A DNA stretch of 64,000 nt from an uncultured Planctomycetales bacterium (GCA_964520655.1 CAZFNI010000003.1:6220-70219); one strand, 5' to 3'; numbered from the stretch's first letter, positions 2,674-34,923 are shown. Notes: generated by a model not told the origin, from the sequence alone. A program made the numbers and translations.

Positions 2674-2813
2674 AACTGGTGCGATTATAACAAAACGCAG
2701 GGTAATCACCTAACAAAAAAGCTTGGTTTAATTTGGTGCAGGGTTTTTTGTGTTTTGGGGTATAATGCTTTGTTTTTAACCAGGGCTTAAGCCCCAAGAG
2801 AGAGAAGGTTTAT

Positions 2814-5404: not shown

Positions 5405-5935
5405 ATGGGCTTAAGGTCTCTTTTAATATATATCCTGCCTTTGTTGATCGTACTCACGATTTATTTATATATACGTCAACGACGGGCACAGAAGGATCTG
5501 GCTTTGCAAAAAGAGCAGGCGAAAGCCGGTTTAACAGAGCCGGCATCTCTGCACCCGATCATTGATCCATCCAAATGCCTTGGCTGCGGATCCTGCGCTG
5601 ATGCCTGTCCGGAGAAGAACGTCCTTGGTATCGTTGATGGGAAAGCGGCATTGATAGCGCCTACCCACTGCATCGGCCACGGGGCATGCAAGACGGCCTG
5701 TCCGATGGATGCCATCACCCTTGTTTTTGGCTCAGAAAAACGCGGGGTTGATATCCCTCTGATCCATCAGGATTTTCAAACCAATGTTCCCGGTGTTTAT
5801 ATTGCCGGGGAGTTAGGCGGCATGGGGTTGATCCGCAACGCGGTCACCCAGGGCCGGCAGGCGATGGGGGCCATCGTTGAAATGGTCAAGCGGAAAAAAA
5901 ACGGTTTTGGAAACCGTGGAGTTGCCGCAGGATGA
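5405..5935 (+). CDS. Membrane-anchored 2x[4Fe-4S] ferredoxin-domain protein carrying only the C-terminal tail of a pyridine-nucleotide oxidoreductase (possible remnant)
   Basis: N-terminal TM helix; two CxxCxxCxxxCP clusters (CLGCGSCADACP, CIGHGACKTACP); then 'VPGVYIAGELGG...' typical of the C-terminal GD-motif region of FAD/NAD(P) oxidoreductases, with no FAD/NAD Rossmann core. Confidence 0.45.
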   Translation: MGLRSLLIYILPLLIVLTIYLYIRQRRAQKDLALQKEQAKAGLTEPASLHPIIDPSKCLGCGSCADACPEKNVLGIVDGKAALIAPTHCIGHGACKTACPMDAITLVFGSEKRGVDIPLIHQDFQTNVPGVYIAGELGGMGLIRNAVTQGRQAMGAIVEMVKRKKNGFGNRGVAAG

Positions 5936-7601
5936 AGCCGGTTTAATGGAACAGGCCAAAGATGCGCTGGCCCAAGGCGAGAATGACCGGGCGGTTGAGA
6001 TCTACTTGAAGGTGCTTCTGACCGCCAGAGAGCCTGTGAAACAGAAGGCCCAAGAGTTATTAGGTCTAGCGCGTGAGCGCAACGGCCAGTTCGCTCATGC
6101 CGCCGCAGAGTACAAGAAATTTTTAGAAAGCTATCCTCAAGGGCCTGATGCCGACCGTGTGCGCCAGCGTTTGGCGGGGCTGGTGACAGCTGAACAAAAT
6201 CCCCAGGAAGCGTTGAAGGAACCATCGAAAACGCCTTTGGAGGAAATAGGGGGGGCTAAAAAAGGCCGCCAGGATACGCGCATGGCCAGCCAACCGGGGC
6301 AAGGCTGGTCGTTCCAGCATTTTGGCAGTTTTTCTCAGTTCCTTTATTGGGATAAACTCAAATCTCACGGCGGGACATCAAGATTAACTGTTAATAACCT
6401 TACCAATGATCTTGACTTAAGCGGCAAATGGAAAAGCCGGCAGACCGATGTGGGTTTTCGTTTTACTGGCGGGACAACACAGGCATTCGTGGAAGGAGCG
6501 CATGATGAGGACAGGGTCAGTGCCTTGTACGCGGATGTTAAAGTTAAGGACAAGGGGCTTTATGCCCGCGTGGGTCGCCAGTCATTGTCGACCGGCGGTG
6601 TTTTAGGTCGTTTTGACGGCATACATGTATCGAACATGATCAACAAGATGATGAAATTTAACGGGGTATTCGGATTCCCCGTTGAGAGTGTCAGGATCAC
6701 GGACATTTTGGCTAAAAAGAAGTTCATCGGAGGCAGCATTGATTGGGGTCCGTATTTAAAGCGCTGGAATTTCAATACATTTTTCATCAACCAGAATAAT
6801 AATGGGTATACGGACCGCCGGGCAATCGGTGGGGAAGCCCGATATTTCGACGCGACCAAAGCGTTGTTCTCCCTGATCGATTATGATGTGTATTTCAAGC
6901 AGATCAATATCGCGATGTTCAACGGCCATTGGACATTGCCAACCAAAACGACGTTTAACCTCTCCGGGGATTACCGTAAAAGTCCGCTGTTGATGACCAC
7001 CAATGCCATCCAGGGGATGGGCGCCAGCGAGATATCGGATTTAAAAGACCGTTTCTCAACAAAAGAGCTGCGGCAGCTGTCCCTTGACCGTACGAGCAAC
7101 AGCAAATCCATGACCGCCGGCATAAGCCAGGATATCAGGGAGAATTTCCAGTGGAACTTGGAAGGATCGGTCTCGATCATTGAAGGTACGCTGACATCTG
7201 GCGGGGTGGACGGCACTGAAACGGTCGATCATCCTGACTACACCACAACGACCGGTTTTGTCCTAAGCCGCGTGTTCAAGGATGATGACGCATTGATCAG
7301 TAATTTCAGTTTTACCGATTCATCGACAGCCAAGGATTATTCCATGAACGTGAATGTCCGCTATCCGTTGACTCCCAAGGTCCGTGTTACGCCGAAATTG
7401 ACCATGGGATACCGTGATACGAAACAATCAACTGATCATCGCTGGCTCCTCCGTCCGACGCTGCATTTTAATTACAGCATCACCCGGTCCATTGATTTTG
7501 AGATCGAGGGCGGCGTTGAATGGATCACCGAAAAGGCCTCCGGCGCCAATCAACGCTCTACGGAAGGTTTCATCACCACCGGTTATCGCATCAGTTTTTA
7601 A
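5877..7601 (+). CDS. TPR-like N-terminal segment plus outer-membrane beta-barrel-like protein with C-terminal Phe; no signal peptide, start uncertain
   Basis: C-terminus '...TTGYRISF' with alternating hydrophobic beta-strand pattern, typical of OMP barrels; N-terminal ~100 aa TPR-like helical repeat; overlaps the preceding ORF by 59 nt in another frame. Confidence 0.45.
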   Translation: MKWSSGKKTVLETVELPQDEAGLMEQAKDALAQGENDRAVEIYLKVLLTAREPVKQKAQELLGLARERNGQFAHAAAEYKKFLESYPQGPDADRVRQRLAGLVTAEQNPQEALKEPSKTPLEEIGGAKKGRQDTRMASQPGQGWSFQHFGSFSQFLYWDKLKSHGGTSRLTVNNLTNDLDLSGKWKSRQTDVGFRFTGGTTQAFVEGAHDEDRVSALYADVKVKDKGLYARVGRQSLSTGGVLGRFDGIHVSNMINKMMKFNGVFGFPVESVRITDILAKKKFIGGSIDWGPYLKRWNFNTFFINQNNNGYTDRRAIGGEARYFDATKALFSLIDYDVYFKQINIAMFNGHWTLPTKTTFNLSGDYRKSPLLMTTNAIQGMGASEISDLKDRFSTKELRQLSLDRTSNSKSMTAGISQDIRENFQWNLEGSVSIIEGTLTSGGVDGTETVDHPDYTTTTGFVLSRVFKDDDALISNFSFTDSSTAKDYSMNVNVRYPLTPKVRVTPKLTMGYRDTKQSTDHRWLLRPTLHFNYSITRSIDFEIEGGVEWITEKASGANQRSTEGFITTGYRISF

Positions 7602-7699: not shown

Positions 7700-8908
7700 A
7701 TGATCTGGATCATTCTTGTGTGTGCCATTGTTTTTAGCGGCTGCCAGCAGCAGCCTCAGGAGCGTCATTATACAGAGATCGTTAACGAAGAGCCTCAGGC
7801 GGCGGCTTTAACTTCCAGCATGGACAATGACCCTCATGCGGGCATGGACATGGCGTCGATGGGTATGGGAATGGGCATGGGGATGGACGCTGGCGCAGCC
7901 GGGGGTGATTTTACCTGGGATCTGCCGGATGGGTGGCAGCAGGAGCCGGGAAAAGGTTTCCGCCTGGCGAGTTTTCATCTGGTGAGCGATGAAAAAGCCA
8001 TTGACGGGTCAATTGTGAACCTAAGCGGCGTGGCCGGCGGTTTGGAGGGGAATCTAAAGCGCTGGATGGGACAGATCGCCATGGAAACATCCGCGGAAGA
8101 CCTGGCCCGGTTGATCGCCAATGCGGCTGAATTCAAGATCAAAGCATTAGGGTCAGGCAAAGTCTTTGATTTCACGACCGTGCAGGAAAAAGGCAAGTCT
8201 GCTGATAAGAGCATGATCGTTGTGATGGTTGGTCTTCCTGAGTCGACCCTGTTCGTCAAGATGACAGGGACAATATCGACGATGAAAGCGCATAAGAACG
8301 ATTTCTTAAAGCTGGCGGCATCGATCAAAAGATCCGCGAGCCCCAAGGCGGCTACGCCCAAAATGGCGGATATGGCCAAAGGGGCAACGGATCCCCACGC
8401 GGGGATGAATATGGGCGACCCTCATGCGGGGGTCGACATGTCGGCCATGCGCGCGGATCTGCCGGTACCGACGCAGAAATTATTGGATTGGGAGGTTCCC
8501 AAGGGATGGAAACAGGGTGCTGGTCACCCCATGCGCCTGGGGACATTTCAATTAGAAGGAGACCCCAAAGCCTTTGATTGTTCTGTTATTTTATTGGGAG
8601 GTGATGCTGGCGGCGTGGAGGCAAATTTATCCCGCTGGATGGGGCAGGTCGGTGTTGCTCCCAATCCGGACAACTTGAAAAAAGCATTATCCAAGGTGCA
8701 GTCGATTAAGACCAAGGGTGGTTTGGATGCGAATGTTTATGATATCAGCGCTCTGCAAGGGGATGAGTCATCGGCGAGGAGTTTGATGGCGGGCATGATC
8801 AGCGTCGGTGGATCGACCATTTTTATCAAGATGACCGGGACCGCAGGCGTTATGCGCAAGGAGCGGGAGCATTTTGCCGACTTTATCAGGTCTTTTAAAC
8901 GCATATGA
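7700..8908 (+). CDS. His/Met-rich lipoprotein with an internally duplicated ~130-aa domain
   Basis: Lipobox 'IVFSGC'; motifs DPHAGM(D/N)M, a (GM)5 run, and two homologous domains (res ~75-215 and ~265-400) sharing 'DGS/CSVI.L.G.AGG.E.NL.RWMGQ...F.KMTGT'. Confidence 0.55.
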   Translation: MIWIILVCAIVFSGCQQQPQERHYTEIVNEEPQAAALTSSMDNDPHAGMDMASMGMGMGMGMDAGAAGGDFTWDLPDGWQQEPGKGFRLASFHLVSDEKAIDGSIVNLSGVAGGLEGNLKRWMGQIAMETSAEDLARLIANAAEFKIKALGSGKVFDFTTVQEKGKSADKSMIVVMVGLPESTLFVKMTGTISTMKAHKNDFLKLAASIKRSASPKAATPKMADMAKGATDPHAGMNMGDPHAGVDMSAMRADLPVPTQKLLDWEVPKGWKQGAGHPMRLGTFQLEGDPKAFDCSVILLGGDAGGVEANLSRWMGQVGVAPNPDNLKKALSKVQSIKTKGGLDANVYDISALQGDESSARSLMAGMISVGGSTIFIKMTGTAGVMRKEREHFADFIRSFKRI

Positions 8909-10011
8909 TCTGGTTTAGACGCCTTAGCTCATCTTATATCACCGTCATTTGTTTGCTGCTGTTGTTGATCCTGACCTTCTGGGGGACAGTTGCTCAAGTA
9001 CAGCAGGGGCTCTATGCGGCCCAGGAGCGTTTTTTTAATTCCTTATTTTTTCTCGCCGGCGGTATTCTGCCTTTTCCTGGTGCCCAGCTTGTCTTGTGGG
9101 TATTGTTCGCCAATTTGTTGGCCATGTCCGTTCTCACCTTTAAGAAATACAGCCAGTGGGTCAACTCAGGATTATTGATCACGCATCTGGGGCTGTTGTT
9201 GTATTTTGTAGCGGCGTTCATGGTCTTTCATGTCTCTCAGGAATCCGTCGTGCGTTTGGCTGTTGGAGGACAGACCAATGTGTCCTTATCCTATCATGAC
9301 TGGGAATTGGCGTATTGGAGCGGTCAAAGCAAAGAGCGTCAGGTCACATCGCTAGACACGGCTTATTTAAAGCCGGGGCATGTCATGCCTTTCTCTAATA
9401 AAGATACCGTGATCACAGTGAAAGAGTTTTTTCAAAACAGCGCTGCCTACACGGGTACTGAGGAGGGTAAGATATCCCGGATCGTCAATGCCTCCGGGAT
9501 CACGCGGATTGTGGCCAAACCGCTGTTGAAAGACAAGGAACAGAATGCTGCGGCGGTCAGTCTGGATGTAAGGGATAAGTCCAAATCCTATACGGTGATC
9601 CTGTTTGGCATGGAGGACCGCCCAACAGCGGTCGAATTAGGTGGTCAGATATATTATTTTATCCTTCGCCACAAGTCTTATCCGCTGCCCTTTAAGATCA
9701 CTTTAGATCAATTCAAGGCGGAATTCCTGCCGGGCACGTCCATGGCCAAGAATTATGAAAGTAATGTGACCATCGACACGGGGACGATAAAACGGCAAGC
9801 CCGCATTTATATGAACAATCCGTTGAAATTTAACGATTACACTCTTTATCAATCGTCCTATGATACAGACAGCACCGGCCGCCAATATTCGACGCTGGCA
9901 GTGGTCAAGAATTTTGCTAAGGTGCTTCCCTATATTGCTTGTTTGGTGGTCTTTGTTGGATTGGCGCTGCACTTTTTGATCCAGGCATTTCGAACGAAAG
10001 AGAACCCATGA
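8905..10011 (+). CDS. Cytochrome c biogenesis system II protein ResB/CcsB-like
   Basis: N-terminal TM helices, ~220-aa soluble domain, C-terminal TM; ATGA-coupled to a CcsA homolog. Confidence 0.6.
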   Translation: MIWFRRLSSSYITVICLLLLLILTFWGTVAQVQQGLYAAQERFFNSLFFLAGGILPFPGAQLVLWVLFANLLAMSVLTFKKYSQWVNSGLLITHLGLLLYFVAAFMVFHVSQESVVRLAVGGQTNVSLSYHDWELAYWSGQSKERQVTSLDTAYLKPGHVMPFSNKDTVITVKEFFQNSAAYTGTEEGKISRIVNASGITRIVAKPLLKDKEQNAAAVSLDVRDKSKSYTVILFGMEDRPTAVELGGQIYYFILRHKSYPLPFKITLDQFKAEFLPGTSMAKNYESNVTIDTGTIKRQARIYMNNPLKFNDYTLYQSSYDTDSTGRQYSTLAVVKNFAKVLPYIACLVVFVGLALHFLIQAFRTKENP

Positions 10012-11696
10012 AGATCAAGGTATTCCTACTGTCGATATTGTTATGTTGCGTTGCAGGGGTAGCTACTGTCCGGGCTGAGATCAGGGATCTGCACAGTTTT
10101 AAAAGTATCCCCATTATGGACGGGGGACGGTTAAAGCCATTGGACACCTTTGCCCGTAGTTTATTGACCCAGTTCTCCGGCAAAGATCATTATGGGAAGA
10201 AAAACGCGAGCACTTGGTTGGCGGCATTATTATTCAATCCCGACAGTACGGCTAATGATAAGGTCTTTTTGATCAATAATCCGGATATCGCGATCGCGCT
10301 AGGCATGCCGATCGATCCTCATCGACGCTATTCTCCGGCCGATGTGAAAAAAGTCTATCCCAAATTAGCGGAATTGCAGGTCCAGGCTGCGGCCATCCCG
10401 GATAAAGAGCGTTCCTTAGTGGAAAATGAGATCATGCGGGTCTTTAATAATATCAATCAATACGCGGATCTGTCGCGCGCGTTTGCGTTCGTATCTCAAG
10501 GGGATGTCAGCCCGGATCTTTGGAATGTCAAGGATATTGCGTTTTTGACCATACCGATAGGGCATGATAATCAGTGGTTAAGTCCTTGGGATGCGGTTAG
10601 GATCAATTTGATGACCGATGCCACGCGTCCTTTGGTCATGTTATGGAAAGATATGGCTGCCAGTTATTCCAAAGGCGATGCTATTAAGTTTGAGTTAGAC
10701 AGCCATACGTATTTGAATGTTGTCGCCCAGCAGCTGTCAGCCGAGGACACAAGGAATTTCAACAAGTTCTCTTTAGAGCTTCAGTATCATGCTTATAGTC
10801 CATTCACTGTCGGGATCATGTTCTATATTTTGGCGTTCATGTTCTTTTTGGTGTCTTTTTCATCTTCGAAACGCTTATGGTATTACCTGGGGCTTGGCTG
10901 CGTGATCGCGGGGTTTGTCCCGCATACGCTTGGATTGATCGCCCGCATCATCATCATGGCTCGCCCGCCGGTATCGAATTTGTATGAAACATTTATTTTT
11001 GTCGGATTTGTCGCGGTCATTTTGGGGTTATTCATTGAGTTCAATAACCGTCAGTGGCTGGGGATCGTGACCGCGGCGATCAGCGGGGCGGCAATGCTGT
11101 TTATCGCCAATAAATACAGCGCCGAGGGTGATACGTTAAAGATGCTGATCGCTGTCCTTAATTCTAATTTCTGGTTGGCAACCCATGTGACGACCATCAC
11201 CATGGGTTACGGGGCGACCTGTGTGGCGGGTGTTCTCGGTCATGTTTGGCTCTTGCAGGCAGCTGCTGGCCGACCGCAGGATGTTTTGGATAGAACATAT
11301 AGAACAACCCTGGGTATCTTGGGATTTTCGTTAACACTGACATTTTTAGGGACAAATCTCGGCGGTGTTTGGGCGGATCAGAGCTGGGGGCGTTTCTGGG
11401 GGTGGGACCCTAAAGAGAATGGGGCGCTGATGATCGTGCTGTGGGTGGCGATCCTGTTACATGCGAAAGTAGCCCGGATGATCGACGCGCTGGGAATGGC
11501 GGTCGGCTGCGTCGTCGGTATGCTGATTGTGATGTGGGCCTGGTTCGGGGTTAATCTTTTAAGCGTCGGACTGCATTCCTATGGATTCACTCAAGGGGTA
11601 GCCACGACCCTGATTGTTTATGCTGTTTTGGAGTTGGTGTTCATTGCCGTGACCGCGTGGGTGATCACAGGGCGCAGATCCTCCCAAACCCTTTAA
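10008..11696 (+). CDS. ccsA: Cytochrome c-type biogenesis protein CcsA (ResC) with a ~270-aa N-terminal periplasmic extension
   Basis: Trp-rich WWD signature 'WGRFWGWDPKENGALM' plus conserved His in flanking TM helices; signal peptide MKIKVFLLSILLCCVAG; the ORF-track start at 9939 is replaced by ATG 10008 overlapping the upstream stop. Confidence 0.7.
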   Translation: MKIKVFLLSILLCCVAGVATVRAEIRDLHSFKSIPIMDGGRLKPLDTFARSLLTQFSGKDHYGKKNASTWLAALLFNPDSTANDKVFLINNPDIAIALGMPIDPHRRYSPADVKKVYPKLAELQVQAAAIPDKERSLVENEIMRVFNNINQYADLSRAFAFVSQGDVSPDLWNVKDIAFLTIPIGHDNQWLSPWDAVRINLMTDATRPLVMLWKDMAASYSKGDAIKFELDSHTYLNVVAQQLSAEDTRNFNKFSLELQYHAYSPFTVGIMFYILAFMFFLVSFSSSKRLWYYLGLGCVIAGFVPHTLGLIARIIIMARPPVSNLYETFIFVGFVAVILGLFIEFNNRQWLGIVTAAISGAAMLFIANKYSAEGDTLKMLIAVLNSNFWLATHVTTITMGYGATCVAGVLGHVWLLQAAAGRPQDVLDRTYRTTLGILGFSLTLTFLGTNLGGVWADQSWGRFWGWDPKENGALMIVLWVAILLHAKVARMIDALGMAVGCVVGMLIVMWAWFGVNLLSVGLHSYGFTQGVATTLIVYAVLELVFIAVTAWVITGRRSSQTL

Positions 11697-14548: not shown

Positions 14549-14594
14549 ATAGAAAGAGATGCTAAAATTCTTGCCAGTAATAGACTCTTTCTAT
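14549..14594 (+). promoter_or_regulatory. 10-bp inverted repeat ATAGAAAGAG-N26-CTCTTTCTAT spanning the nrdG to kinase intergenic region; right arm overlaps the kinase ATG
   Basis: Perfect arms at 14549-14558 and 14585-14594; no T-run, so more likely an operator or start-codon-sequestering hairpin than a terminator. Confidence 0.3.
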
Positions 14595-15648
14595 GGAAAA
14601 GAATATAGATAATATAGACCTGCAAAGATCCCTCAAAGAGCTGGCGGATATGAAATTCGCGCTCGATGCGGCCTCCATTGTCGCGATCACGGACCGCAAA
14701 GGTGATATCATTTACGTGAATGATAAATTCTGTCAGATCTCTAAGTACAACAGGAATGAGCTCTTAGGTAAAAATCATCGCATCATCAATTCCGGTTATC
14801 ACCCCAAAGAATTTTTCAAGGACATGTGGCGCACTATCATGGTTGGCAAAGTTTGGAAGGGGGAGATCTGCAATAAAGCCAAAGACGGCAGTTTATATTG
14901 GGTGGATTCGACCATTGTGCCCTTCCTCAATGAAAAGGGTCTCCCGTATCAGTATTTGTCCATCCGCAATGAGGTCACGGCCCGCAAACTCATGGAAGAA
15001 CAGCTCAAGGCTCTCCCCAAGCGCATTATCCAGGCGCAGGAAAGCGAATGTAACCGCATTGCTCGTGATATCCATGATGATCTGGGGCAGTCTTTGGCCA
15101 CGCTTAAGATGATGATCCAGTCGTCTCTAGTCGAAACGGCCAAGAATGCGCGGCATGATAAGGACTCGGTGCGTATCCTCGAATATTTGAACGGTATCAT
15201 CGATCGTTCCCGGGGGCTGGCGACCCGCCTGCGTCCATCGACGCTGGAGGTGCTTGGACTTTCAACCGCGATCAAGCTGCTGGCGAGGGATATTAGTCAC
15301 TCAAAAAAATTTAAAGTGCATTTTTCTTCAATTTCTACCAACGGCCTGCAATTTGAGGGAGAGGCGATCAATGTTTTCCGCATTGTCCAGGAAGCCTTGT
15401 CCAATAGCATGAAACATGCCAGGGCAAGCAAGGTCAATGTGCGCATGGCCCGGCGTCAAGGCCGGTTTAAAGTTGTCATTGAAGATAATGGCCGAGGGTT
15501 TAAGGCCAATGACAAAAGTTTGGGGCTGGGGCTTGTGACCATGAAAGAGAGGGCCAAGCTGTTGGGCGGTTCTATTGATATTCGATCGATCGTCGGTAAA
15601 GGAACGATCATTTCTTTAGATATTCCTGTAAAGGATAAGGCTGTATGA
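14593..15648 (+). CDS. PAS-domain sensor histidine kinase (HisKA_3/NarX-DegS type)
   Basis: PAS segment (ITDRKGDIIYVNDKFCQISKY...), H-box 'ARDIHDDLGQSLATLKM', HATPase N/G boxes (EALSNSMKHA, IEDNGRGF, GLGLVTMKERA). Confidence 0.75.
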   Translation: MEKNIDNIDLQRSLKELADMKFALDAASIVAITDRKGDIIYVNDKFCQISKYNRNELLGKNHRIINSGYHPKEFFKDMWRTIMVGKVWKGEICNKAKDGSLYWVDSTIVPFLNEKGLPYQYLSIRNEVTARKLMEEQLKALPKRIIQAQESECNRIARDIHDDLGQSLATLKMMIQSSLVETAKNARHDKDSVRILEYLNGIIDRSRGLATRLRPSTLEVLGLSTAIKLLARDISHSKKFKVHFSSISTNGLQFEGEAINVFRIVQEALSNSMKHARASKVNVRMARRQGRFKVVIEDNGRGFKANDKSLGLGLVTMKERAKLLGGSIDIRSIVGKGTIISLDIPVKDKAV

Positions 15649-16289
15649 AAACCATCAGGGTGATCTTAGCCGATGATCATGAAATGTTCCGCTCGGGTTT
15701 AAAAGCCCTGCTGGACAAGGAGCCGGATTTCAAGGTCGTGGCACAGGCACAGGACGGCGAGCAGCTGTTGGAGAAATTGGCCTCTGCGGTATGCGACTGT
15801 GTGGTCATGGACTTAAGCATGCCAAATCTCGATGGTTTGGCGGCGCTTAAAGAGATAGAACAGAAGTACCCCAAGACAAAATGCCTGGTACTGACCATGC
15901 AGAAGGACGAAGAGCATTTTAAAAAAGCCATGGCCCACGGGGCAAAGGGGTATATCCTTAAAGACAGAGCGTTTGATTCGCTGGTCGTGGCCATTAAGAC
16001 GGTCATCCGGGGAAAATCGTTCGTGTCGCCGTCCATTTCGGATATTATCACCCGGCAATTTGTCAGCTCCATCCGAGAGGGGGACAGTCCGTCCCTGGAA
16101 TTATTAACGCCCCGGGAGAAAGAAATATTGAAGCTGATCGCCCTGGGGGCGGCCAATAAGAATATTGCCACAAGGCTTAAGATCAGTATCCGCACTGTTG
16201 AAACTCATCGCAGTCATTTGATCCATAAGCTAGGGCTGAAAACGACAGCGGCGTTAGTCAAGTATGCGATGTCTAAAGGGATCGTTTAG
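15645..16289 (+). CDS. NarL/FixJ-family response regulator (REC + LuxR HTH)
   Basis: Receiver (RVILADDHEMFR...DLSMPNLDG) and LuxR-type HTH 'LTPREKEILKLIALGAANKNIATRLKISIRTVETHRSHLIHKLG'; ATGA-coupled to the kinase. Confidence 0.8.
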   Translation: MKTIRVILADDHEMFRSGLKALLDKEPDFKVVAQAQDGEQLLEKLASAVCDCVVMDLSMPNLDGLAALKEIEQKYPKTKCLVLTMQKDEEHFKKAMAHGAKGYILKDRAFDSLVVAIKTVIRGKSFVSPSISDIITRQFVSSIREGDSPSLELLTPREKEILKLIALGAANKNIATRLKISIRTVETHRSHLIHKLGLKTTAALVKYAMSKGIV

Positions 16290-16357
16290 CCGGATTACGT
16301 GTTTCTACGTAGGGTTATCCGTATAATGTCGCATATAATGAAATCTTCATTTCTTTT

Positions 16358-16744
16358 ATGATGTCTTCTATGTCAAAAACCATTTTGATCGTGGAAGACC
16401 ATAAAGACTTCAGAAAAGAAGTCAGGCATTTTTTAGAAGTCAGCAAAGTGGATGCCCGTTTAGTGGAAGCAGCGTCGGGTGAGGAAGGGGTTTTAGTCGC
16501 AAAGGAAACGCGGCCGCAGATCGTCCTCATGGATTTTTGGCTGGGCGGTCTAAACGGCATCGACGCAGCGGCGCAGATCAAGGAAACAGTGCCAGGCTGT
16601 TCCATCATCATGCTGACGATGTTTGACACAAAAGAGATCGGGAAGCTGAACACCAGGAACCACATTAAAACGTTCATTAATAAAGGGGATCTTTTCAAGC
16701 AGTTGATCCCCAGCCTTAAAAAGATATTGAATTCGGTCAATTAG
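16358..16744 (+). CDS. Single-domain response-regulator receiver (CheY-like)
   Basis: 'ILIVEDHKDFRKEV...VLMDFWLGGLNGID...K' receiver pattern. Confidence 0.6.
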   Translation: MMSSMSKTILIVEDHKDFRKEVRHFLEVSKVDARLVEAASGEEGVLVAKETRPQIVLMDFWLGGLNGIDAAAQIKETVPGCSIIMLTMFDTKEIGKLNTRNHIKTFINKGDLFKQLIPSLKKILNSVN

Positions 16745-16763: not shown

Positions 16764-17816
16764 ATGAAAATTTTGGCGATAGGCTTAAACCACCGAACAT
16801 CTTCTATTGATCTTAGAGAGAAATTCTATGTCAGCCCCCAGGAACGGGAGCTGCTGATCGCGCAGTTCAAAACGGATGCCCAAGTCATGTCCGCTGTTGT
16901 TCTCTCCACCTGCAACCGCTGCGAGATCTATGCCAATGTCGTCGATGATTGCGAGCCTAAGCATATCATCCAAATGCTTTTTACCTTAAAACACCTGCCG
17001 CTGGATGATCAATATGTGAAAATGTTCTACACGCTGCAGGGTCCGGAGGCTGTCACCCATTTTCTGGAGGTCGCCTGCGGTCTGGATTCACTGATCCTGG
17101 GGGAGAAGCAGATCCTTGGGCAGATCAAGGAAGCGGTCGGTGTTTCCCGCGAAAAAGGATTGATGGACAAAACACTCAATATCCTCACCAACTATGTTTT
17201 AGAGACAGGCAAAAAAGCCCGGCAGGACACCCAGATCGATTTTGGCGGGATGTCGGTCAGCGCCGCAGCGGTCTCAACGGCCCAGGCAATGCTTGGTTCG
17301 TTGCAGGATAAAAGCGTTTTGGTCGTCGGCTCCGGTAAGATGGGAGCGCTGGCGCTCAATTATCTTCACCAAAAGAAAGCCAAAAAGATCTATTTGATGA
17401 ACAGGACTTTAGAGAATGCCGCCGCGCTGGCTCAAGAAGTAAAGGCGGAGGTTGTGCCTTTCTGGAACATGAAAGAGGTGCTCGCCGAGGTGGATGTGTG
17501 TATTTGCTCCTCGGGCGCTCCGCATTATCTGATCACCAAAGATCTCATGGAAAATGTGGCCCTGGCGCGCCAAACTCCGGTCATTTTGATCGATATTTCG
17601 ATGCCGCGCAACATTGATCCCGCCGTTGCCGGGATCAGCGGTGTCACGTTAGTTGAGCTGGATGATTTAGACAAGGTCATCGAACGCACGGTGTTAACAC
17701 GTCAAGATGCGGTCAAGGAAGTGGCGGCACTTGTCATTCGCAAAAGGGAAGAATTTTATAATGCCATGGCAAAGATCGAGGCCATGGCCGGTCAACAGGT
17801 TTTAATGTCATCTTAA
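16764..17816 (+). CDS. hemA: Glutamyl-tRNA reductase (short form, 350 aa)
   Basis: 'STCNRCEIY' catalytic Cys motif, 'GLDSLILGE', NADPH-binding 'VVGSGKMG'. Confidence 0.75.
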   Translation: MKILAIGLNHRTSSIDLREKFYVSPQERELLIAQFKTDAQVMSAVVLSTCNRCEIYANVVDDCEPKHIIQMLFTLKHLPLDDQYVKMFYTLQGPEAVTHFLEVACGLDSLILGEKQILGQIKEAVGVSREKGLMDKTLNILTNYVLETGKKARQDTQIDFGGMSVSAAAVSTAQAMLGSLQDKSVLVVGSGKMGALALNYLHQKKAKKIYLMNRTLENAAALAQEVKAEVVPFWNMKEVLAEVDVCICSSGAPHYLITKDLMENVALARQTPVILIDISMPRNIDPAVAGISGVTLVELDDLDKVIERTVLTRQDAVKEVAALVIRKREEFYNAMAKIEAMAGQQVLMSS

Positions 17817-17833: not shown

Positions 17834-18130
17834 ATGAACGTCACATCTCAAAGATCAACTGTTTTAATGCTCGTTATCGCGGGCATGTTTGTCTTGTCGG
17901 GCGCGATCCCGGCCCAGGCTGACATTAAAGAGATCAAGAAGTACAAAGAAGCTTTTCCTGAAAGCAAACCAAAGTGCATTGAATGCCATGTTTCAGATAA
18001 GCCCAAAAAAGATGACGGTCAGCATGAGATGAACGATTATGGCAAAGCGGTCGTCGAGAAGTCGAAAGAAACAACAGCGGATACTTATAAAGAAGTTGGC
18101 AAGATCGAAGATTTCAAACCCAAACAATAA
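17834..18130 (+). CDS. Periplasmic monoheme cytochrome c (Lys-rich, 98 aa)
   Basis: Signal peptide; single 'CIECH' heme-binding motif. Confidence 0.6.
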   Translation: MNVTSQRSTVLMLVIAGMFVLSGAIPAQADIKEIKKYKEAFPESKPKCIECHVSDKPKKDDGQHEMNDYGKAVVEKSKETTADTYKEVGKIEDFKPKQ

Positions 18131-18148
18131 CAAGCGAACGGAGAGCGT

Positions 18149-18892
18149 ATGAAAGTCCACCATCTCATCATTGTTGTCTTAAGCTTGTTCCTGGCTTTTG
18201 TTAAGCCTGCTTTTGCGTTGGATGCAAGATCCCAGGAACTTGTCAGGACAGCGACATATGTCGGTTCCGAGACATGTGCCACCTGTCACGAGAAGGAGTC
18301 TAGGCAATTTAAGCTATCCACCCACGCGCGTATTTCCAATGACGCCAATGAGGGCACGGCCCAGGGGTGTGAAATGTGTCACGGACCTGGCAGTGTCCAC
18401 GCGGATGCTAACGGAGGCAAAGGCAGCATCATTAATCCGAAAAAAGATCCGAGCATTTGTTTCACCTGCCATACAGAGAAGCGCGCGGAATTTAATCTGC
18501 CTTACCGTCATCCGGTTCTCGAGGGTAAGATGAGCTGTTCTGACTGCCACAGCCCGCATGGCGAAGAAGTTAAGCCCTGGAGTTCCACCAGCATGAATGA
18601 TGCCAATGAAGCCTGCTTCAAATGCCATAAGGAACAGCAGGGACCGTTCGTGTGGGAACATGAAGCCACGCGCGACGGCTGTTCTAGCTGCCATAAAGTG
18701 CATGGTTCGGTTAATGACAAAATGTTGATCGCCAGGGATTCCAACCTGTGTTTGCGTTGTCATACGCAGACGAATTTCCAGACGATCGGTAAGTCAAACC
18801 ATAACGGCCGCCTGAACCACGCGAGCTGTTTCACCGCCGGATGTCACACAGCGGTGCATGGATCGAACTTTGATGATCACTTACGGTATTAA
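18149..18892 (+). CDS. Periplasmic multiheme (8-heme) c-type cytochrome, MtrA/MtoA/OmaB-like
   Basis: Signal peptide; 7 CxxCH (CATCH, CEMCH, CFTCH, CSDCH, CFKCH, CSSCH, CLRCH) plus one Cx4CH (CFTAGCH); short inter-heme spacing typical of MtrA-type wires. Confidence 0.75.
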   Translation: MKVHHLIIVVLSLFLAFVKPAFALDARSQELVRTATYVGSETCATCHEKESRQFKLSTHARISNDANEGTAQGCEMCHGPGSVHADANGGKGSIINPKKDPSICFTCHTEKRAEFNLPYRHPVLEGKMSCSDCHSPHGEEVKPWSSTSMNDANEACFKCHKEQQGPFVWEHEATRDGCSSCHKVHGSVNDKMLIARDSNLCLRCHTQTNFQTIGKSNHNGRLNHASCFTAGCHTAVHGSNFDDHLRY

Positions 18893-18909
18893 GGCCAAAG
18901 GAGCGCAGT

Positions 18910-20979
18910 ATGAATAAACCACAATCATATAAGTTTTTCAGCAGTTTGCTGGCGTGTGTGATCGCCTTGAGCTTTACGGCTTATGGCGTGCACGCTCAGG
19001 AAACCTCGAATCCGGTGAACATCACCCTGATGCCGTTTGCGATCACCACGGTTAAAGGCGATGCCCAGAAATTCAGGGCCATGCACTGGATCAACGACGG
19101 GTATTCTTATGGGATCAAAGACCTCACCATTGAGGATAGTTCCAATAAGAACGCCAATGTGTCCTTGGAAGCGCATTCTATTCCAAATGATTACGATAAT
19201 GCGCTTGACTTAACCTTAACTAAGGAAAATGTCGGTTATGTCAAGACGGATTATGCGTCGTTCCGTAAGTATTACGACGGGACCGGCGGTACGTATTATC
19301 CGCACACCACGTTTAGCGCGTTAACGCTGGAAGATGATCTTAAGATGGACATGCAGCATATGTTCGTTGAGATCGGTTCCAAGACGGCGGATGATCCTGG
19401 CGTGGCTGTCGCTTTTGAGCGCCACAGCAAGGATGGTCGTAAATCCAGGCTGGCTTGGACGGCGGTGAAATTCGGGTCTGTGACCCGCGACATTGGTCCG
19501 ACCTGGCAGGATGTAGAGGAAGTCACTGATGCTGTTGCCTTAAAAGGCAACGGTGAAGTGGCTGGCTTTAATGTCGGCGCTGAACAGAAATTCGAGTTTA
19601 CCCACATCAAGTCGCTGCGCGAGGAAAAATTTCTCAGCGCGGCCGGCGGGGTGAGCTCTGATACGAAAATGCGCCGCCAGTGGCAGGATCCTCAGACGGA
19701 TCTGTACACAACGACCTTGAAAGGCGACCGCTGGTTTAACAATGACAAGAACCATTTGTCATTAGGGTACCGTTACAGCAATCTTGAAAACAGTGAATTG
19801 GAGAATTTAAGGGAATACACTGCTGCTGGGGTTCCTAATAATTATTCCAATCCTAAAAGTGCGATCAACGCGTATGCCAAAAATCGCTATAATGCGCATA
19901 CGACGGTAGGGAGTTTTATGTCTCAGCTTGGTAAGGATCTGAATTTCATTACCAAGATGAAAGCGGAGGTGCTAAACCGTAGGGGCACGTCCGCCTATCC
20001 GCATGATACAACGTCGGGCGCACCGGACGGGATCATCAATACGACGGATGTGAGCACGACCGAGAATAAGATCTACCGATTAGGAGAGAATTTCTCCTTG
20101 CGCTATAATGGGATTTCTAAGACAAGTCTCTATAGCGAAGTTGAGATGGAGCAAACACGCAACTGGTTAACCGAAGAGAGAAACAGCATCGCAGGACAGT
20201 CTGCTGCTGAGGCGGGCGAACAATTAGGGCGCGAGACGATCACCCATGTCCAGAACTTGGTTGCGACCGCGGGTGCCCGCTATGTTCCCTCAAAGGCATT
20301 AAGCATCACGACACAGGTCCGTCATAAACTCAACAACAATGATTATGACGACGTTATTGAAACAGTGTATGCATCCGGTTCAAAATCCGCCTTCGTTGAT
20401 GCGGTCAAGACCCGGGGGGATGAGTTGACAACAAAAGTCTCCTGGAAGCCGGTCAACAGGGTGGAAGGGGTTTTCCGTTATAAGCTCAGCGACACTAAGT
20501 ATATGCCCAGAGTGGAGAGCCAGGAAGAAACCAAGTCCCGCGGATTAAGCAATGTCTTCGGGTATGATCTAAACTTGCAGCCGACGGATCCGTTGTTCGT
20601 GACCCTGTCTTTTTCTCAGGATTTCAGCAACGTGACCACGCCGGCGGGGGCGAGCACATCATTGCAGTACCCCGGATTTAGATCGAATTCCAATAATTGG
20701 TTGATGGCCACCAGTTATATGATCAATGAGAAATGGAGCCTCAACAGCTCGTTCCAATACACGTTGATCAAGAATTTCAACGACGTGACCTCGACTTTGC
20801 TGCCTTATGCTGCGGACAGCAAGAGTTACGATGGGGCTGTGGGATTGTCATGGAGCGTGAACAAGTCCTTGACCGTGTCACCACATTACGGTTATTATGC
20901 GTATAAGCCAAACAGCATGGCGGAATCAGGCGCATATAATGCCCAAGTGGTGTGGTTGGATGCGAAGTTATTATGGTAA
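18910..20979 (+). CDS. Outer-membrane beta-barrel porin (689 aa), MtrB/MtoB/OmbB-like partner of the upstream cytochrome
   Basis: Signal peptide (…SFTAYGVHA/QE); long amphipathic beta-strand pattern; C-terminal '...WLDAKLLW' aromatic terminus; genomic context. Confidence 0.6.
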   Translation: MNKPQSYKFFSSLLACVIALSFTAYGVHAQETSNPVNITLMPFAITTVKGDAQKFRAMHWINDGYSYGIKDLTIEDSSNKNANVSLEAHSIPNDYDNALDLTLTKENVGYVKTDYASFRKYYDGTGGTYYPHTTFSALTLEDDLKMDMQHMFVEIGSKTADDPGVAVAFERHSKDGRKSRLAWTAVKFGSVTRDIGPTWQDVEEVTDAVALKGNGEVAGFNVGAEQKFEFTHIKSLREEKFLSAAGGVSSDTKMRRQWQDPQTDLYTTTLKGDRWFNNDKNHLSLGYRYSNLENSELENLREYTAAGVPNNYSNPKSAINAYAKNRYNAHTTVGSFMSQLGKDLNFITKMKAEVLNRRGTSAYPHDTTSGAPDGIINTTDVSTTENKIYRLGENFSLRYNGISKTSLYSEVEMEQTRNWLTEERNSIAGQSAAEAGEQLGRETITHVQNLVATAGARYVPSKALSITTQVRHKLNNNDYDDVIETVYASGSKSAFVDAVKTRGDELTTKVSWKPVNRVEGVFRYKLSDTKYMPRVESQEETKSRGLSNVFGYDLNLQPTDPLFVTLSFSQDFSNVTTPAGASTSLQYPGFRSNSNNWLMATSYMINEKWSLNSSFQYTLIKNFNDVTSTLLPYAADSKSYDGAVGLSWSVNKSLTVSPHYGYYAYKPNSMAESGAYNAQVVWLDAKLLW

Positions 20980-22587: not shown

Positions 22588-22983
22588 ATGATCGAATGGA
22601 AAGATGCTTACGCAACTGGTAATGAAGCGGTGGATCGTCAGCACCGCCTGTTGTTCGATTTCTTTAATGATTTTGAATCAGTGATCAATGAAGGCAAGGG
22701 TAAGCATTACCTGGAAAAAAGTTTTGGGATGCTTGAGGCCTATGCCGCGGCGCATTTTAAGTTTGAAGAACGATGCATGGATGAGGCGCGTTGTTCGGTT
22801 TCCCAGAAGAACAAGATCGCTCACCAGATGTTTTTGGCTAAAGTTCAGGAATTCAAACGGGCATTTGAAACCAAAGAAGTGAAGGACGATTTCTATGTCG
22901 AGATGCACAGCTTCATTGAACAGTGGATCACCAGCCATATCATCGGTATTGATACGCACTTAAAGGATTGTATAAAAAAGTAA
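22588..22983 (+). CDS. Bacteriohemerythrin (HHE cation-binding domain)
   Basis: 'MIEWKDAYATGNEAVDRQHRLLFDFFNDF' plus downstream His/Glu ligands (HFKFEERCMDE, HQMF, HIIGIDTHL); SD 'aaaggag' before ATG 22588 (the ORF-track start at 22513 is upstream of it). Confidence 0.7.
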   Translation: MIEWKDAYATGNEAVDRQHRLLFDFFNDFESVINEGKGKHYLEKSFGMLEAYAAAHFKFEERCMDEARCSVSQKNKIAHQMFLAKVQEFKRAFETKEVKDDFYVEMHSFIEQWITSHIIGIDTHLKDCIKK

Positions 22984-25024: not shown

Positions 25025-25825
25025 ATGATCTATGAAAAGATGCTGGCTTCCGTTGTCCATTTCACCCGAGATTCGATCATCATCACCAATAAAGATCTTG
25101 ATCCCCCTGGTCCGTTCATTGTTTATGTGAATCCAGGATTCACTGCCATGACGGGGTATGAGCCGCATGAGGTGATCGGCCGTTCGCCGCGCATCCTGCA
25201 GGGCCCTAAAACAGATCCCGCTGTCACCAGGCGGCTTAAAGAAACATTGGAAAAGGGGGGTGTATTTTTCGGCCAAGCGGTCAATTACCGCAAGGACGGC
25301 TCGGAATTTTGGAATGAATGGCACATTGAGCCGATAAAAGATGCGGATGGGCAGGTGACGCATTATGTCGCGATCCAGCGTGATGTCACTGAACGAAAGA
25401 AAATAGAGGAGGCCATTGAGCAAAAGAACGCGGCCTTAAGGGAGGTGTTGGAACAGGTTTCGCTCGAGAAGCAGAATATCGCGCGCAATGTCAGCAGCAA
25501 TGCGCAGAAGATCATCCTGCCGGCGTTAAAAAAACTGCGCCGGAAAGCCAGCGCTTCGGATAGGGCCTATTTTGATGTCTTAGAGAAAAATCTTTTAGAC
25601 TTGACATCTACTTTTGGGGCGAATGTATCGGGGCAGAAATATTCATTGTCCCCGCGAGAGGTTGAGGTTGCCAATTTGATCAAAAGCGGATTTGGCAGCA
25701 AAGAGATCGCAGCGATGCTTAACATGTCTTTTAAAACGGTTGAAACCCACCGCAACAAGATCCGAAAGAAATTTGGGCTGTTGAATACCGATATCAATCT
25801 AACCACTTATCTTCAAACGATTTAG
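25025..25825 (+). CDS. LOV-like PAS domain + LuxR-type HTH transcription regulator (EL222-like architecture; flavin-adduct Cys absent)
   Basis: 'NPGFTAMTGYEPHEVIGRSPRILQGPKTDP...NYRKDGSEFWN...THYVAIQRDVTERK' matches the LOV core but has SPRILQ instead of NCRFLQ; C-terminal LuxR HTH 'SPREVEVANLIKSGFGSKEIAAMLNMSFKTVETHRNKIRKKFG'. Confidence 0.65.
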   Translation: MIYEKMLASVVHFTRDSIIITNKDLDPPGPFIVYVNPGFTAMTGYEPHEVIGRSPRILQGPKTDPAVTRRLKETLEKGGVFFGQAVNYRKDGSEFWNEWHIEPIKDADGQVTHYVAIQRDVTERKKIEEAIEQKNAALREVLEQVSLEKQNIARNVSSNAQKIILPALKKLRRKASASDRAYFDVLEKNLLDLTSTFGANVSGQKYSLSPREVEVANLIKSGFGSKEIAAMLNMSFKTVETHRNKIRKKFGLLNTDINLTTYLQTI

Positions 25826-32869: not shown

Positions 32870-33283
32870 ATGAAAATGCCGTTATTAGAACAATTAAAAG
32901 CTAAGCATCTTAAGCTGACGCCGAAACGCAAAGCGATCCTGGACTGTTTTTCCGGCGAGAATAAATGTTTGTCTCCTGAGCAGGTGTGGGAGAAGTTAAG
33001 GAAAGATTTCAAACATTTAGGGCTCCCCAGCATTTACCGCAATCTGGAAACATTTGAGAGCTGCGGGATCTTGGTCAAGATCCAGAAAGATGACAGGCGT
33101 TTGTATTACGCGTTGTGCCGAGGTCACGTGAGCGGGCATCACCATCATCATATCGTGTGTGTCCGCTGCGGAAGGGTCGACGAGGTTGACGGTTGCGGCC
33201 TGATGGAAACCGTCAAGGTCAGCGGTTATAAAGTATTGAAGCATTTTGTCCAATTGGAGGGAGTGTGTCCCCAATGCCGTTAA
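32870..33283 (+). CDS. zur: Fur-family metalloregulator, probable zinc uptake regulator
   Basis: Fur-family winged helix (LTPKRKAILDCF...SPEQVWEKL), His-rich 'HHHHHIVCVRCG' and CxxC pairs; immediately upstream of znuACB. Confidence 0.7.
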   Translation: MKMPLLEQLKAKHLKLTPKRKAILDCFSGENKCLSPEQVWEKLRKDFKHLGLPSIYRNLETFESCGILVKIQKDDRRLYYALCRGHVSGHHHHHIVCVRCGRVDEVDGCGLMETVKVSGYKVLKHFVQLEGVCPQCR

Positions 33284-34170
33284 CCTTCAAACAAAATACA
33301 GCTATTGTCCTGATCATGCTGTTGTGTATGCTGCCAGGCGGGGCCTGTCATGCCAAAAGCATTCACGCGGTAGCCACATTTAGCGTGGTGGGAGATATCG
33401 TCCGGCAGGTGGCGGGTGAGGCGGTGGACTTGACTGTTTTGGTAGGGGCCAATGCCGATGCCCATGAGTATGAGCCGACACCGCAGGATGCGGTCATTTT
33501 AAGTCATGCGGATGTCATCTTTGAGAATGGGTTTAAGTTCGAGGGGTGGCTGGATAAATTGTATGCGTCCAGTAACTCCAACGCGCGACGCGTTGTAGTT
33601 TCAGAGGGTGCGCGCGCAAGGACTATGCCGGATAATCCATCCGAGATAGACCCACATGCCTGGCAGAATATACAGAACGGGATCATCTATGCGCGTAATA
33701 TCGCCGCGGCGCTAAAAGAACTTGATCCCTCCCATACGGCGATCTATGAGGCCAATGTCAAAAACTTTGTAGACCGATTAACGCAATTGGATCAATGGGG
33801 CGAGCAGCAGCTCAAAGGGGTCAAGAACAGGACGATCGTCACCAATCATGAAGCGCTGGGCTATTTTGCCGATCGGTATGGCTTTACAATTGCCGGGGCT
33901 GTTATCCCGTCAACAACGACAGAAGCATCGGATCCATCAGCCAGGCAGATGGCGCGTCTGATCGAGGTGATACAGAAAGAACATGTAAGGGCCATATTCG
34001 CGGAAAATGCGTCCAACAGTCAAATGGCGAAAGTGTTGGCTGATCAGGCCGGTGTCAGGGTTGTGCCGGGGCTGTATACGGACGCGTTGGGTACCTCGGA
34101 AAGTAAAGGTTCAACGTATGAGGGGATGATGCGCGCGAACATTCAAACATTCACTGAAAATCTGGAATGA
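33265..34170 (+). CDS. znuA: Metal (Zn/Mn) ABC transporter substrate-binding protein, TroA/ZnuA family
   Basis: Signal peptide; cluster-9 SBP pattern (HAWQN, 'DPHAW', 'NHEALGYFADRYG'); operon context. Confidence 0.7.
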   Translation: MSPMPLTFKQNTAIVLIMLLCMLPGGACHAKSIHAVATFSVVGDIVRQVAGEAVDLTVLVGANADAHEYEPTPQDAVILSHADVIFENGFKFEGWLDKLYASSNSNARRVVVSEGARARTMPDNPSEIDPHAWQNIQNGIIYARNIAAALKELDPSHTAIYEANVKNFVDRLTQLDQWGEQQLKGVKNRTIVTNHEALGYFADRYGFTIAGAVIPSTTTEASDPSARQMARLIEVIQKEHVRAIFAENASNSQMAKVLADQAGVRVVPGLYTDALGTSESKGSTYEGMMRANIQTFTENLE

Positions 34171-34173
34171 TCC

Positions 34174-34923
34174 ATGAAGTTCTCTTATTGTCAGCATCGA
34201 CATAGCCATCCAAACCCCAAAGCGCCGGCGCTTGAGATCAAGGATCTTGCGGTGGCCTATCCATATGCGCAGGATATGGCGATCACAGGGTTGAGCACTC
34301 ATGTTCATGTCGGGGATTCCATTGCTTTGGTTGGTTCCAATGGTGCTGGGAAGTCGACGCTGTTTAAGGCTATCAGCGGTTTGCTGCCCATCCATTCCGG
34401 CAGCATACGCATTTTCGGTCATCCGCTGGGGGCCTGCCATCAACGTGTGGTCTATTTGCCCCAGCACAGCGATGTTGACTGGTCTTTCCCTGTCAGCGTG
34501 TTGGACTTGGTGAGCATGGGCAGATATGTGTACCGCGGCTGGTTTTCTCCTTTACGTAAAAGAGACTGGCATGAGGCTCATGAGGCTCTTAAGCAAATGC
34601 GCATGGATGATCTTTGCGGCCGGCATATCAGCAGTCTTTCCGGTGGACAAAAGCAGCGGGTACTCATCGCGCGGGCATTGGCCCAGCAGGCCGATCTGCT
34701 GCTTTTAGATGAACCTCTCAACGCGGTGGATGCCCAGACGCGTGAGATCGTTGAGGATCTCTTAAAGAAGATCAAGGCGCAAGGCAAGACGGTGCTGGTG
34801 GCCACCCATTATTATGACAGGGAAGAAGGGCGCTATGACGGGGCCATTTATCTTAAAGACGGGACGCAAGTAAATTCAGACATGAAAAAAGACAACCGGC
34901 ACCAGGGATGCGACCACCCATGA
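34174..34923 (+). CDS. znuC: Metal ABC transporter ATP-binding protein
   Basis: Walker A 'GSNGAGKST', signature 'LSGGQKQRVLIARAL', Walker B 'LLLLDEP'. Confidence 0.75.
   Translation: MKFSYCQHRHSHPNPKAPALEIKDLAVAYPYAQDMAITGLSTHVHVGDSIALVGSNGAGKSTLFKAISGLLPIHSGSIRIFGHPLGACHQRVVYLPQHSDVDWSFPVSVLDLVSMGRYVYRGWFSPLRKRDWHEAHEALKQMRMDDLCGRHISSLSGGQKQRVLIARALAQQADLLLLDEPLNAVDAQTREIVEDLLKKIKAQGKTVLVATHYYDREEGRYDGAIYLKDGTQVNSDMKKDNRHQGCDHP

Follow-up and report, generated by a model that had tools for sequence, protein, structure and literature searches.

An uncultured bacterium labelled Planctomycetales (GCA_964520655.1 CAZFNI010000003.1:6220-70219) carries three consecutive genes that raise the question of whether, and in which direction, their products pass electrons across the outer membrane. 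We analysed the 64-kb stretch of DNA that holds them, referred to here as the window. A first-pass annotation of this stretch had read the genes as a porin-cytochrome conduit with the architecture of MtrAB and MtoAB, made up of a monoheme cytochrome c, an octaheme cytochrome and a large porin. We observe three open reading frames (ORFs) on the plus strand at exactly the coordinates given there (Table 1), with gaps of 18 bases between monoheme and octaheme and 17 bases between octaheme and porin. The proposed architecture is upheld, as the octaheme best matches MtrA and the barrel best resembles MtrB. Our reading, which we consider probable, is that of a two-component trans-outer-membrane conduit of the MtrAB type that makes up the outer half of a pathway encoded in full by a single gene string and that most likely runs outward.

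An octaheme cytochrome related to MtrA

The product of the second gene is secreted and carries seven CxxCH motifs and one Cx4CH motif, as first annotated: a signal peptide is present, the CxxCH motifs lie at residues 43, 74, 104, 130, 156, 178, and 201, and a CFTAGCH (Cx4CH) lies at residue 227. When compared with all PDB sequences by phmmer, the protein best matches 6R2Q chain A (E value of 2.5e-34) in two stretches spanning residues 38-241, followed by NrfB as the second-best match (1e-4). Although the search table labels it with an unrelated name, we take 6R2Q chain A to be MtrA of the MtrCAB complex, in keeping with the ten CxxCH motifs that it shows when aligned. In one local alignment (30 bits) hemes 1-4 of the octaheme fall on hemes 1-4 of MtrA, and in the other (98 bits) its hemes 3-8 fall on MtrA hemes 5-10; in the simplest reading, equivalents of MtrA hemes 3 and 4 would be absent. 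A C-terminal CH..VHGSN motif is common to both proteins.

Among NCBIfam models, the nearest are the DmsE and GSU2203 decaheme families (E values of about 1e-50), whose members transfer electrons and are not catalytic. The first-pass annotation had named the nitrite or hydroxylamine reductases as the class to which the protein might belong instead, and the model of the nitrite reductase subunit NrfB matches far more weakly (1e-12). The scores stay below the curated cutoffs, with 172.2 bits versus 192.2 for TIGR03508 and 176.7 versus 325 for NF041028 (GSU2203 family), and the octaheme has eight heme motifs where the MtrA/DmsE family is defined by ten CxxCH. Judged by these matches, it is a true MtrA homologue, though shortened and outside the thresholds of the MtrA/DmsE family. 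An alignment of 37 octaheme homologues shows eight invariant histidines in addition to those of the motifs, as many as there are hemes, which fits a set of eight electron-transfer hemes with presumed bis-histidine ligation and no catalytic site.

A 26-strand barrel with an MtrB-like fold

The third gene was annotated as encoding a large outer-membrane protein with an aromatic end, and its 689-aa product indeed has a signal peptide, lacks any heme motif, and terminates in tryptophan (...AKLLW). Its AlphaFold2 model, built on 29 homologues, is confident and reaches a mean predicted local distance difference test score (pLDDT) of 86.3 and a predicted TM-score (pTM) of 0.76. The strand list of the model alternates turns of 2-8 residues with loops of 4-23 residues, and counting back from the C terminus yields 26 transmembrane strands, with both termini in the periplasm and no plug domain; a barrel of fewer than 16 strands had been regarded in the first-pass annotation as too small to hold a cytochrome. 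Many of the modeled strands are 20-24 residues long and form a tall wall.

In a Foldseek search of the PDB, the top-ranked structure is MtrB (6R2Q_B; TM-scores of 0.63 and 0.66), and 22-strand TonB-dependent receptors reach at most 0.47. Superposition on MtrB covers 556 residues at 3.5 Å, versus at most 466 residues at a larger root mean square deviation for other barrels, so that both methods place MtrB closest in structure. MtrB itself reportedly has 26 strands as well. By sequence, however, the protein falls outside the family: against Pfam and NCBIfam at an E value of ≤0.01 we obtained only a sub-threshold DUF2490 match, with the MtrB/PioB models PF11854 and TIGR03509 unmatched, and a profile of the 29 homologues searched against the PDB at an E value of ≤10 did not find 6R2Q_B. 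The barrel therefore agrees with the structural definition of the MtrB/PioB family and departs from its sequence definition. We propose that it forms an insulating sheath around the octaheme, with the cytochrome inserted into it.

Conservation of the module across relatives

A word-indexed protein search with the porin returned 33 relatives, the named ones being metagenome-assembled genomes (MAGs) of Omnitrophota. An exhaustive porin profile search recovered 927 clusters (50% identity) at an E value of ≤1e-3, including 417 at ≤1e-30, and a scan of one genome per species with the porin gave 48 loci, mostly titled Omnitrophota, several of them with automatic "Planctomycetales" labels. More distant porins (22-23% identity) belong to Verrucomicrobiota and to single MAGs of Syntrophales and Lentisphaeria. 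Going by the nearest named relatives, the host of the window is probably a member of Omnitrophota.

Wherever a locus reaches far enough upstream, which is the case for 33 of them, an octaheme gene (roughly 255 aa, 7 + 1 hemes) lies directly before the porin, across porin identities from 70% down to 22%. Because it recurs in this way, the 7 + 1 motif pattern is not a product of chance. Slight variants occur, with an ordinary CxxCH as the last motif in two loci (L018 and L022) and an additional N-terminal heme domain fused in another (L016). The octaheme is much better conserved than the barrel, at 59 to 76% identity across the top 120 clusters. The rates of the two partners differ strongly, the porin falling to 22 to 45% identity in most relatives.

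These data also bear on whether there is a wire at all. The barrel could be an ordinary large solute channel that happens to lie beside a DmsE-like cytochrome serving a periplasmic reductase, and its failure against every MtrB/PioB sequence model speaks for this reading. We regard it as highly improbable, since the cytochrome-then-barrel order is strict across 33 loci and several phyla, the superposition on MtrB is more extensive than that on other barrels, the model shows a plug-free barrel of 26 strands, the cluster lacks a terminal reductase gene, and monoheme domains are fused to the N terminus of the barrel in Verrucomicrobiota, as described below.

The monoheme cytochrome as a putative adaptor

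The first gene of the module encodes a 98-aa protein with a signal peptide cleaved at ...AIPAQA|DIKE, leaving a mature form of 69 aa and about 8 kDa. It had been described as lysine rich, which is accurate (16 lysines, 16.3%), yet it is not basic: the 16 lysines are balanced by 16 acidic residues, and the mature protein has a computed isoelectric point of about 6.9. The conserved pattern is K.YKEA.P....KC..CH....PKK..G.H..N.YG, and as conservation in the mature protein extends to no more than two histidines, its heme is likely bis-histidine ligated. No cytochrome model of Pfam or NCBIfam matched the protein, which forms a family of its own, and we therefore rejected its identification as an MtoD-type class I cytochrome c. 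Of the earlier match to MtoD/MtoA/MtoB, then, the MtrA homology and the MtrB-like fold stand, while the monoheme is no homologue of MtoD and the barrel fails the MtrB/PioB sequence models. The resemblance of the monoheme to MtoD would be functional only, by analogy.

A hidden Markov model (HMM) of the monoheme family detects a member immediately 5' of the octaheme gene in about 25 of the related loci, some of which have two to three copies. In one locus (L016, 8696-9952), the monoheme domain is fused via a TSP3 repeat to the N terminus of the octaheme. The Verrucomicrobiota loci lack this Omnitrophota family according to the same HMM; instead, a PSCyt1 monoheme domain is fused to the N terminus of the porin in L038 (1680-4088), L041, and L044, and a class I cytochrome c gene occupies the monoheme position in L037. 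We had considered the porin-fused domain as a homologue of the monoheme, but it proved to be PSCyt1, which is nonhomologous and at most analogous in role. The fusion of PSCyt1, a Planctomycete-type heme domain, to a porin gives a layout reminiscent of Cyc2.

That three unrelated monohemes sit at the periplasmic end of the module suggests that a one-heme adaptor is required, and the natural monoheme fusions place this adaptor in the periplasm. We propose that the monoheme acts as a periplasmic adaptor or shuttle feeding the octaheme.

Inner-membrane cytochromes in the same gene string

The first-pass annotation had ended the gene unit at position 20979 with the porin. This boundary does not hold, as the string continues after a gap of only 8 bases with an ImcH-type and then a CbcL-type cytochrome gene. 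The full order is hemA-monoheme-octaheme-porin-ImcH-type-hemerythrin-CbcL-type, with gaps of 4 to 18 bases where the starts are clear. A six-frame scan shows that the two inner-membrane cytochrome genes are the only other ORFs with at least two heme motifs in the window.

The ImcH-type protein has transmembrane (TM)-like segments at residues 16-48, 51-78, and 103-129, a CGVTCH (Cx3CH) motif at residue 139, and six CxxCH motifs, spaced 25/49/107/117/20/39. It thereby shows the features that define the ImcH family, namely three TM segments, a Cx3CH motif by the last helix, about six CxxCH motifs, and a length of about 495-519 aa (PMC6295460). Published Omnitrophica ImcH homologues are 505 aa long, with a spacing of 24/49/109/117/20/40 and TM segments at residues 19-41, 51-73, and 104-126 (Zhong and Shi, PMC6295460, supplement). 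The CbcL-type protein contains 11 CxxCH motifs at residues 36-326, PF01292 at residues 405-581, and a TIGR01583-like region at residues 403-590, and so has the multiheme c domain fused to a HydC/FdnI-like b-type membrane domain that characterizes the CbcL/MtrH/MtoC family (PMC6295460). Its heme spacing equals that of the Omnitrophica homologue OGX07562.1 at 9 of 10 intervals, the tenth being off by one residue. Both assignments are made from motif spacing, TM pattern, and domains, and the two proteins are best called ImcH-like and CbcL-like. The ImcH-type cytochrome would act as a quinol oxidase feeding the periplasm and the CbcL-type cytochrome as a second quinol/quinone oxidoreductase.

The linkage extends to relatives: in 20 of 36 related loci, the flanking sequence analysed contains an ImcH-type gene, in many cases immediately 3' of the porin. 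An additional gene separates porin and imcH in some of them (L013, L024, and L040, directly after the porin, as well as L025, L027, and L029). It encodes a nine-heme cytochrome of roughly 410 aa with a coiled coil and a C-terminal TM helix or, alternatively, a tetraheme protein of 162 to 177 aa directly after the porin with an N-terminal TM helix. We considered these post-porin genes as hidden MtrC-like lipoproteins and rejected the idea, as the products have TM helices and do not resemble MtrC-type lipoproteins; L013 has a further tetraheme protein with a possible lipobox.

At the other end of the string, hemA ends 17 bases upstream of the monoheme gene, an adjacency also seen in L001 and L023, and its product probably helps to provide the heme that the other, heme-rich proteins of the cluster need. 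This short glutamyl-tRNA reductase matches positions 1-338 of the 416-position model. In L023, hemA and the monoheme share one stop-free frame (1853-3262); the two may be fused, or a stop codon may be missing or the assembly wrong. The hemerythrin gene lies between the ImcH-like and CbcL-like genes in L001 as well, and its product may sense O2 or iron or have a protective role.

Proposed route and direction of electron flow

In the pathway that we envisage, the ImcH-like and CbcL-like cytochromes would oxidize quinol at the inner membrane and pass electrons to the periplasmic monoheme, which would link them to the N-terminal heme of the octaheme. From there, electrons would travel along the eight-heme chain threaded through the barrel and leave at the cell surface from the terminal Cx4CH heme. 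The ten hemes of MtrA span about 80 Å. As a rough consistency check, eight hemes would span about 60 to 65 Å, similar to the height expected of tilted strands of 22 to 24 residues.

Among the conduit readings we favor outward flow, which we rate as somewhat more probable than not, in view of the link to ImcH and of the anaerobic setting. ImcH is interpreted as a quinol oxidase, and its homologues are reported from Fe(III) reducers only (PMC6295460). An anaerobic ribonucleotide reductase is encoded upstream of the cluster and a rubrerythrin within the window. The first-pass annotation had leaned toward electron uptake from the lack of an MtrC-type partner; this lean is weakened by the occurrence of ImcH homologues so far only in Fe(III) reducers (PMC6295460).

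The same hardware could nevertheless run inward. Its electrons would then come from a partner or host cell, a cathodic mineral, or dissolved Fe(II), and the monoheme would hand them to the CbcL/MtoC-type cytochrome for quinone reduction or to an oxidase whose gene lies elsewhere. The statement that no MtrC/OmcB-type surface cytochrome is encoded nearby holds throughout the window in the six-frame heme-motif scan, which found no ORF for a surface lipoprotein multiheme cytochrome, and none is apparent beside the module in most relatives. The small monoheme partner also parallels MtoD by analogy. Set against inward flow are the ImcH-type gene 8 bases after the porin, its linkage in the related loci and the restriction of its homologues to Fe(III) reducers, the two proteins suggestive of an anaerobe, and the absence from the window of any oxidase, bc1 complex, RuBisCO, or other marker of lithoautotrophy or carbon fixation. 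Moreover, FeGenie-based surveys class Omnitrophia cytochromes as metal reducing, by annotation only, reporting "metal-reducing cytochromes" in 10 of 23 Omnitrophia species (PMC10066038). Altogether, we consider inward flow a serious rival, though a rather unlikely one.

Several points weigh against our interpretation of an outward MtrAB-type conduit. MtrAB-type modules without MtrC are the arrangement of Fe(II) oxidizers (PioAB and MtoAB; PMC7005843, PMC6344600), and sequence does not settle the direction. The CbcL/MtoC family is present in both reducers and oxidizers (PMC6295460), which again suits inward flow. A surface cytochrome, a terminal oxidase, or carbon fixation genes could lie outside the 64 kb. 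Lacking detectable sequence similarity to MtrB/PioB, the barrel may not share common descent with them, and the AlphaFold2 model of the octaheme alone, built with 37 homologues, was too poor for a fold search (pLDDT of 52.5, pTM of 0.37).

For the outward conduit, the absence of a surface cytochrome nearby points to acceptors that are likely soluble, colloidal, or small, such as chelated Fe(III), humic quinones, shuttles, or partner redox proteins, and not bulk mineral. Soluble-type acceptors have likewise been proposed for Verrucomicrobial clusters (PMC5615132). A more speculative idea, which we think quite improbable, is that the conduit serves ultra-small, host-attached Omnitrophota as an electron-exchange interface with a partner or prey, the bare terminal heme docking on surface cytochromes or conductive appendages of the other cell. 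If so, respiratory electrons would be dumped onto the host or siphoned from it. As a variant, the 8-kDa monoheme may leave the cell by way of the barrel and act as a diffusible shuttle.

Finally, the flux might be small and nonrespiratory, serving redox balancing or reductive iron acquisition, in which surface Fe(III) is reduced to Fe(II) for uptake. An FTR1 permease and a ZnuA-type importer are encoded 6 to 10 kb downstream, hemerythrin, which binds iron or O2, lies inside the cluster, and a conduit without a mineral-contacting cytochrome would handle soluble Fe(III) best. We nonetheless judge an assimilatory role improbable, since two large multiheme quinol oxidases together with the conserved linkage of hemA and maturation genes amount to a heavy investment, and several unrelated genes separate the iron transporters from the cluster.

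Comparison with known conduits

Shewanella MtrAB (6R2Q) shares with the present module a homologous cytochrome, the barrel fold on which our model superposes best, the strand number (26, as reported for MtrB), and the cytochrome-then-barrel gene order. It differs in having ten hemes rather than eight, including hemes 3 and 4, whose equivalents appear absent here, and the last motif here is a Cx4CH. Further differences are the lack of detectable sequence similarity between the barrel and MtrB, the absence of an MtrC partner from the window, a monoheme dedicated to the conduit, and ImcH- and CbcL-type partners in place of CymA. The MtoAB(-MtoD-CymA/MtoC) and PioAB systems resemble the module in being two-component conduits without a surface cytochrome, with a small monoheme gene and a CbcL/MtoC-type cytochrome. 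However, MtoA and PioA carry ten hemes, and their porins MtoB and PioB are recognized by the MtrB_PioB models. The present monoheme, unlike MtoD, is no class I cytochrome, and the module includes an ImcH-type gene, which is unknown in Fe(II) oxidizers.

Geobacter OmaB-OmbB-OmcB and Ext complexes likewise combine an octaheme periplasmic cytochrome with a porin and have the same inner-membrane families, ImcH and CbcL. They differ from the present module in the surface lipoprotein cytochrome, which is not encoded in the window, and in that imcH and cbcL are not beside the porin genes. The porin-cytochrome (Pcc) systems of Geobacter are reported as not homologous to Mtr (PMC6344600), unlike the octaheme described here, which by its alignments belongs with MtrA; OmaB and OmbB were compared by description only.

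The closest published description is the "novel porin-MHC" (multiheme cytochrome) of freshwater/soil and bog Verrucomicrobia, with a porin of at least 20 strands and an eight-heme periplasmic cytochrome, for which extracellular electron transfer was hypothesized; homologues were reported only within Verrucomicrobia and without a fold assignment (He et al. 2017, PMC5615132). In both cases a large porin gene adjoins that of a periplasmic cytochrome with eight heme sites. Four Verrucomicrobiota loci in our set (L037, L038, L041, and L044) share this layout, and their porins are full-length homologues of the one in the window at 22-23% identity (tblastn E values of 1e-30 to 1e-41). We liken them to the clusters of He et al. 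by layout, and they may not be the published genes. They differ from the window in having a fused PSCyt1 or a class I cytochrome c neighbor in place of the Omnitrophota monoheme.

Implications for predicted electron exchange in Omnitrophota

The concept of such a conduit is already known. The papers we searched do not describe an eight-heme MtrA, the unclassified family of MtrB-like barrels, a monoheme dedicated to such a pair, or its linkage with ImcH and CbcL in a single operon, and our literature search found no paper describing this porin in Omnitrophota. A compact and complete electron pathway from the inner membrane to the surface, as predicted here, is placed in a phylum without isolates, whose respiration is known only from annotation surveys. 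The published ImcH survey reports no mtrAB or mtoAB adjacent to imcH (PMC6295460), so that imcH directly beside an mtrAB-like pair is an arrangement that it did not find. The barrel family is widespread without having a Pfam or NCBIfam entry and is structurally the closest yet to MtrB outside the MtrB/PioB sequence family. If the conduit is functional, FeGenie-like tools that rely on MtrB/PioB models will under-count electron-exchanging bacteria in groundwater, bogs, and sediments.

An eight-heme MtrA, a 26-strand sheath, and a recurrently recruited monoheme adaptor would together make a natural minimal Mtr wire, useful in bioelectronic engineering and in studies of the number of hemes that it takes to span an outer membrane.

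Candidate regulators and neighboring genes

Table 1. Genes of the conduit string and of its surroundings, with positions counted from the first base of the window
Feature	Position	Strand	Basis
System II cytochrome c maturation genes, ResB-like and CcsA-like	8905..11696	+	PF05140, PF01578
PAS sensor histidine kinase, NarL-type response regulator, stand-alone receiver	14593..16744	+	Sequences read by eye
hemA, glutamyl-tRNA reductase, short 350-aa form	16764..17816	+	TIGR01035, E value 2.2e-96
Secreted monoheme c-type cytochrome	17834..18130	+	One CIECH motif, signal peptide, family HMM
Secreted octaheme c-type cytochrome, MtrA homologue by sequence, 247 aa	18149..18892	+	7 CxxCH + 1 Cx4CH, signal peptide, MtrA homology
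Outer-membrane beta-barrel, 26 strands in the model, MtrB-like fold, 689 aa	18910..20979	+	Signal peptide, AlphaFold2 model, Foldseek
ImcH-type inner-membrane heptaheme cytochrome, 504 aa	20988..22502	+	NapC/NirT N-terminal domain, heme spacing, TM pattern
Bacteriohemerythrin	22588..22983 (longest ORF from 22513)	+	NF033749, 92 bits versus cutoff 84; start per L001 gene call
CbcL/MtrH/MtoC-type inner-membrane cytochrome, 670 aa	22988..25000	+	11 CxxCH + PF01292 Ni_hydr_CYTB
PAS (LOV-like) + LuxR-type helix-turn-helix (HTH) regulator	25025..25825	+	PF13426, PF00196; YtvA-family model, E value 1.5e-33
FTR1-family iron permease, 519 aa	31213..32772	+	FTR1 domain on residues 1-260 only
ZnuA-type metal ATP-binding cassette (ABC) importer	33265-35738		Follows FTR1 permease

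By position, two sets of genes are candidate regulators of the cluster, namely the two-component genes upstream of hemA and the PAS-LuxR gene directly after the CbcL-like gene. The PAS-LuxR protein resembles LOV-HTH light sensors and has the flavin-adduct motif GRSPRILQG, lacking the photoactive cysteine; it may sense redox rather than light. Promoter and terminator scans gave counts at background (24 versus 18.6 and 16 versus 12.3 expected, respectively) and leave the operon boundaries undefined.

The ResB/CcsA-like genes are supporting machinery and stand outside the conduit itself. Directly upstream of them, two plus-strand ORFs of 574 and 402 aa (5877-7601 and 7700-8908) had no match in Pfam at an E value of ≤1e-8. 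Downstream of the cluster follow a P-type ATPase, the FTR1 permease, and the metal ABC importer, and the rest of the window holds housekeeping genes. Nearly every gene of at least 150 aa lies on the plus strand, and all 2-kb bins show a positive GC skew; gene orientation and skew suggest that the 64 kb lie on the leading strand of one replichore.

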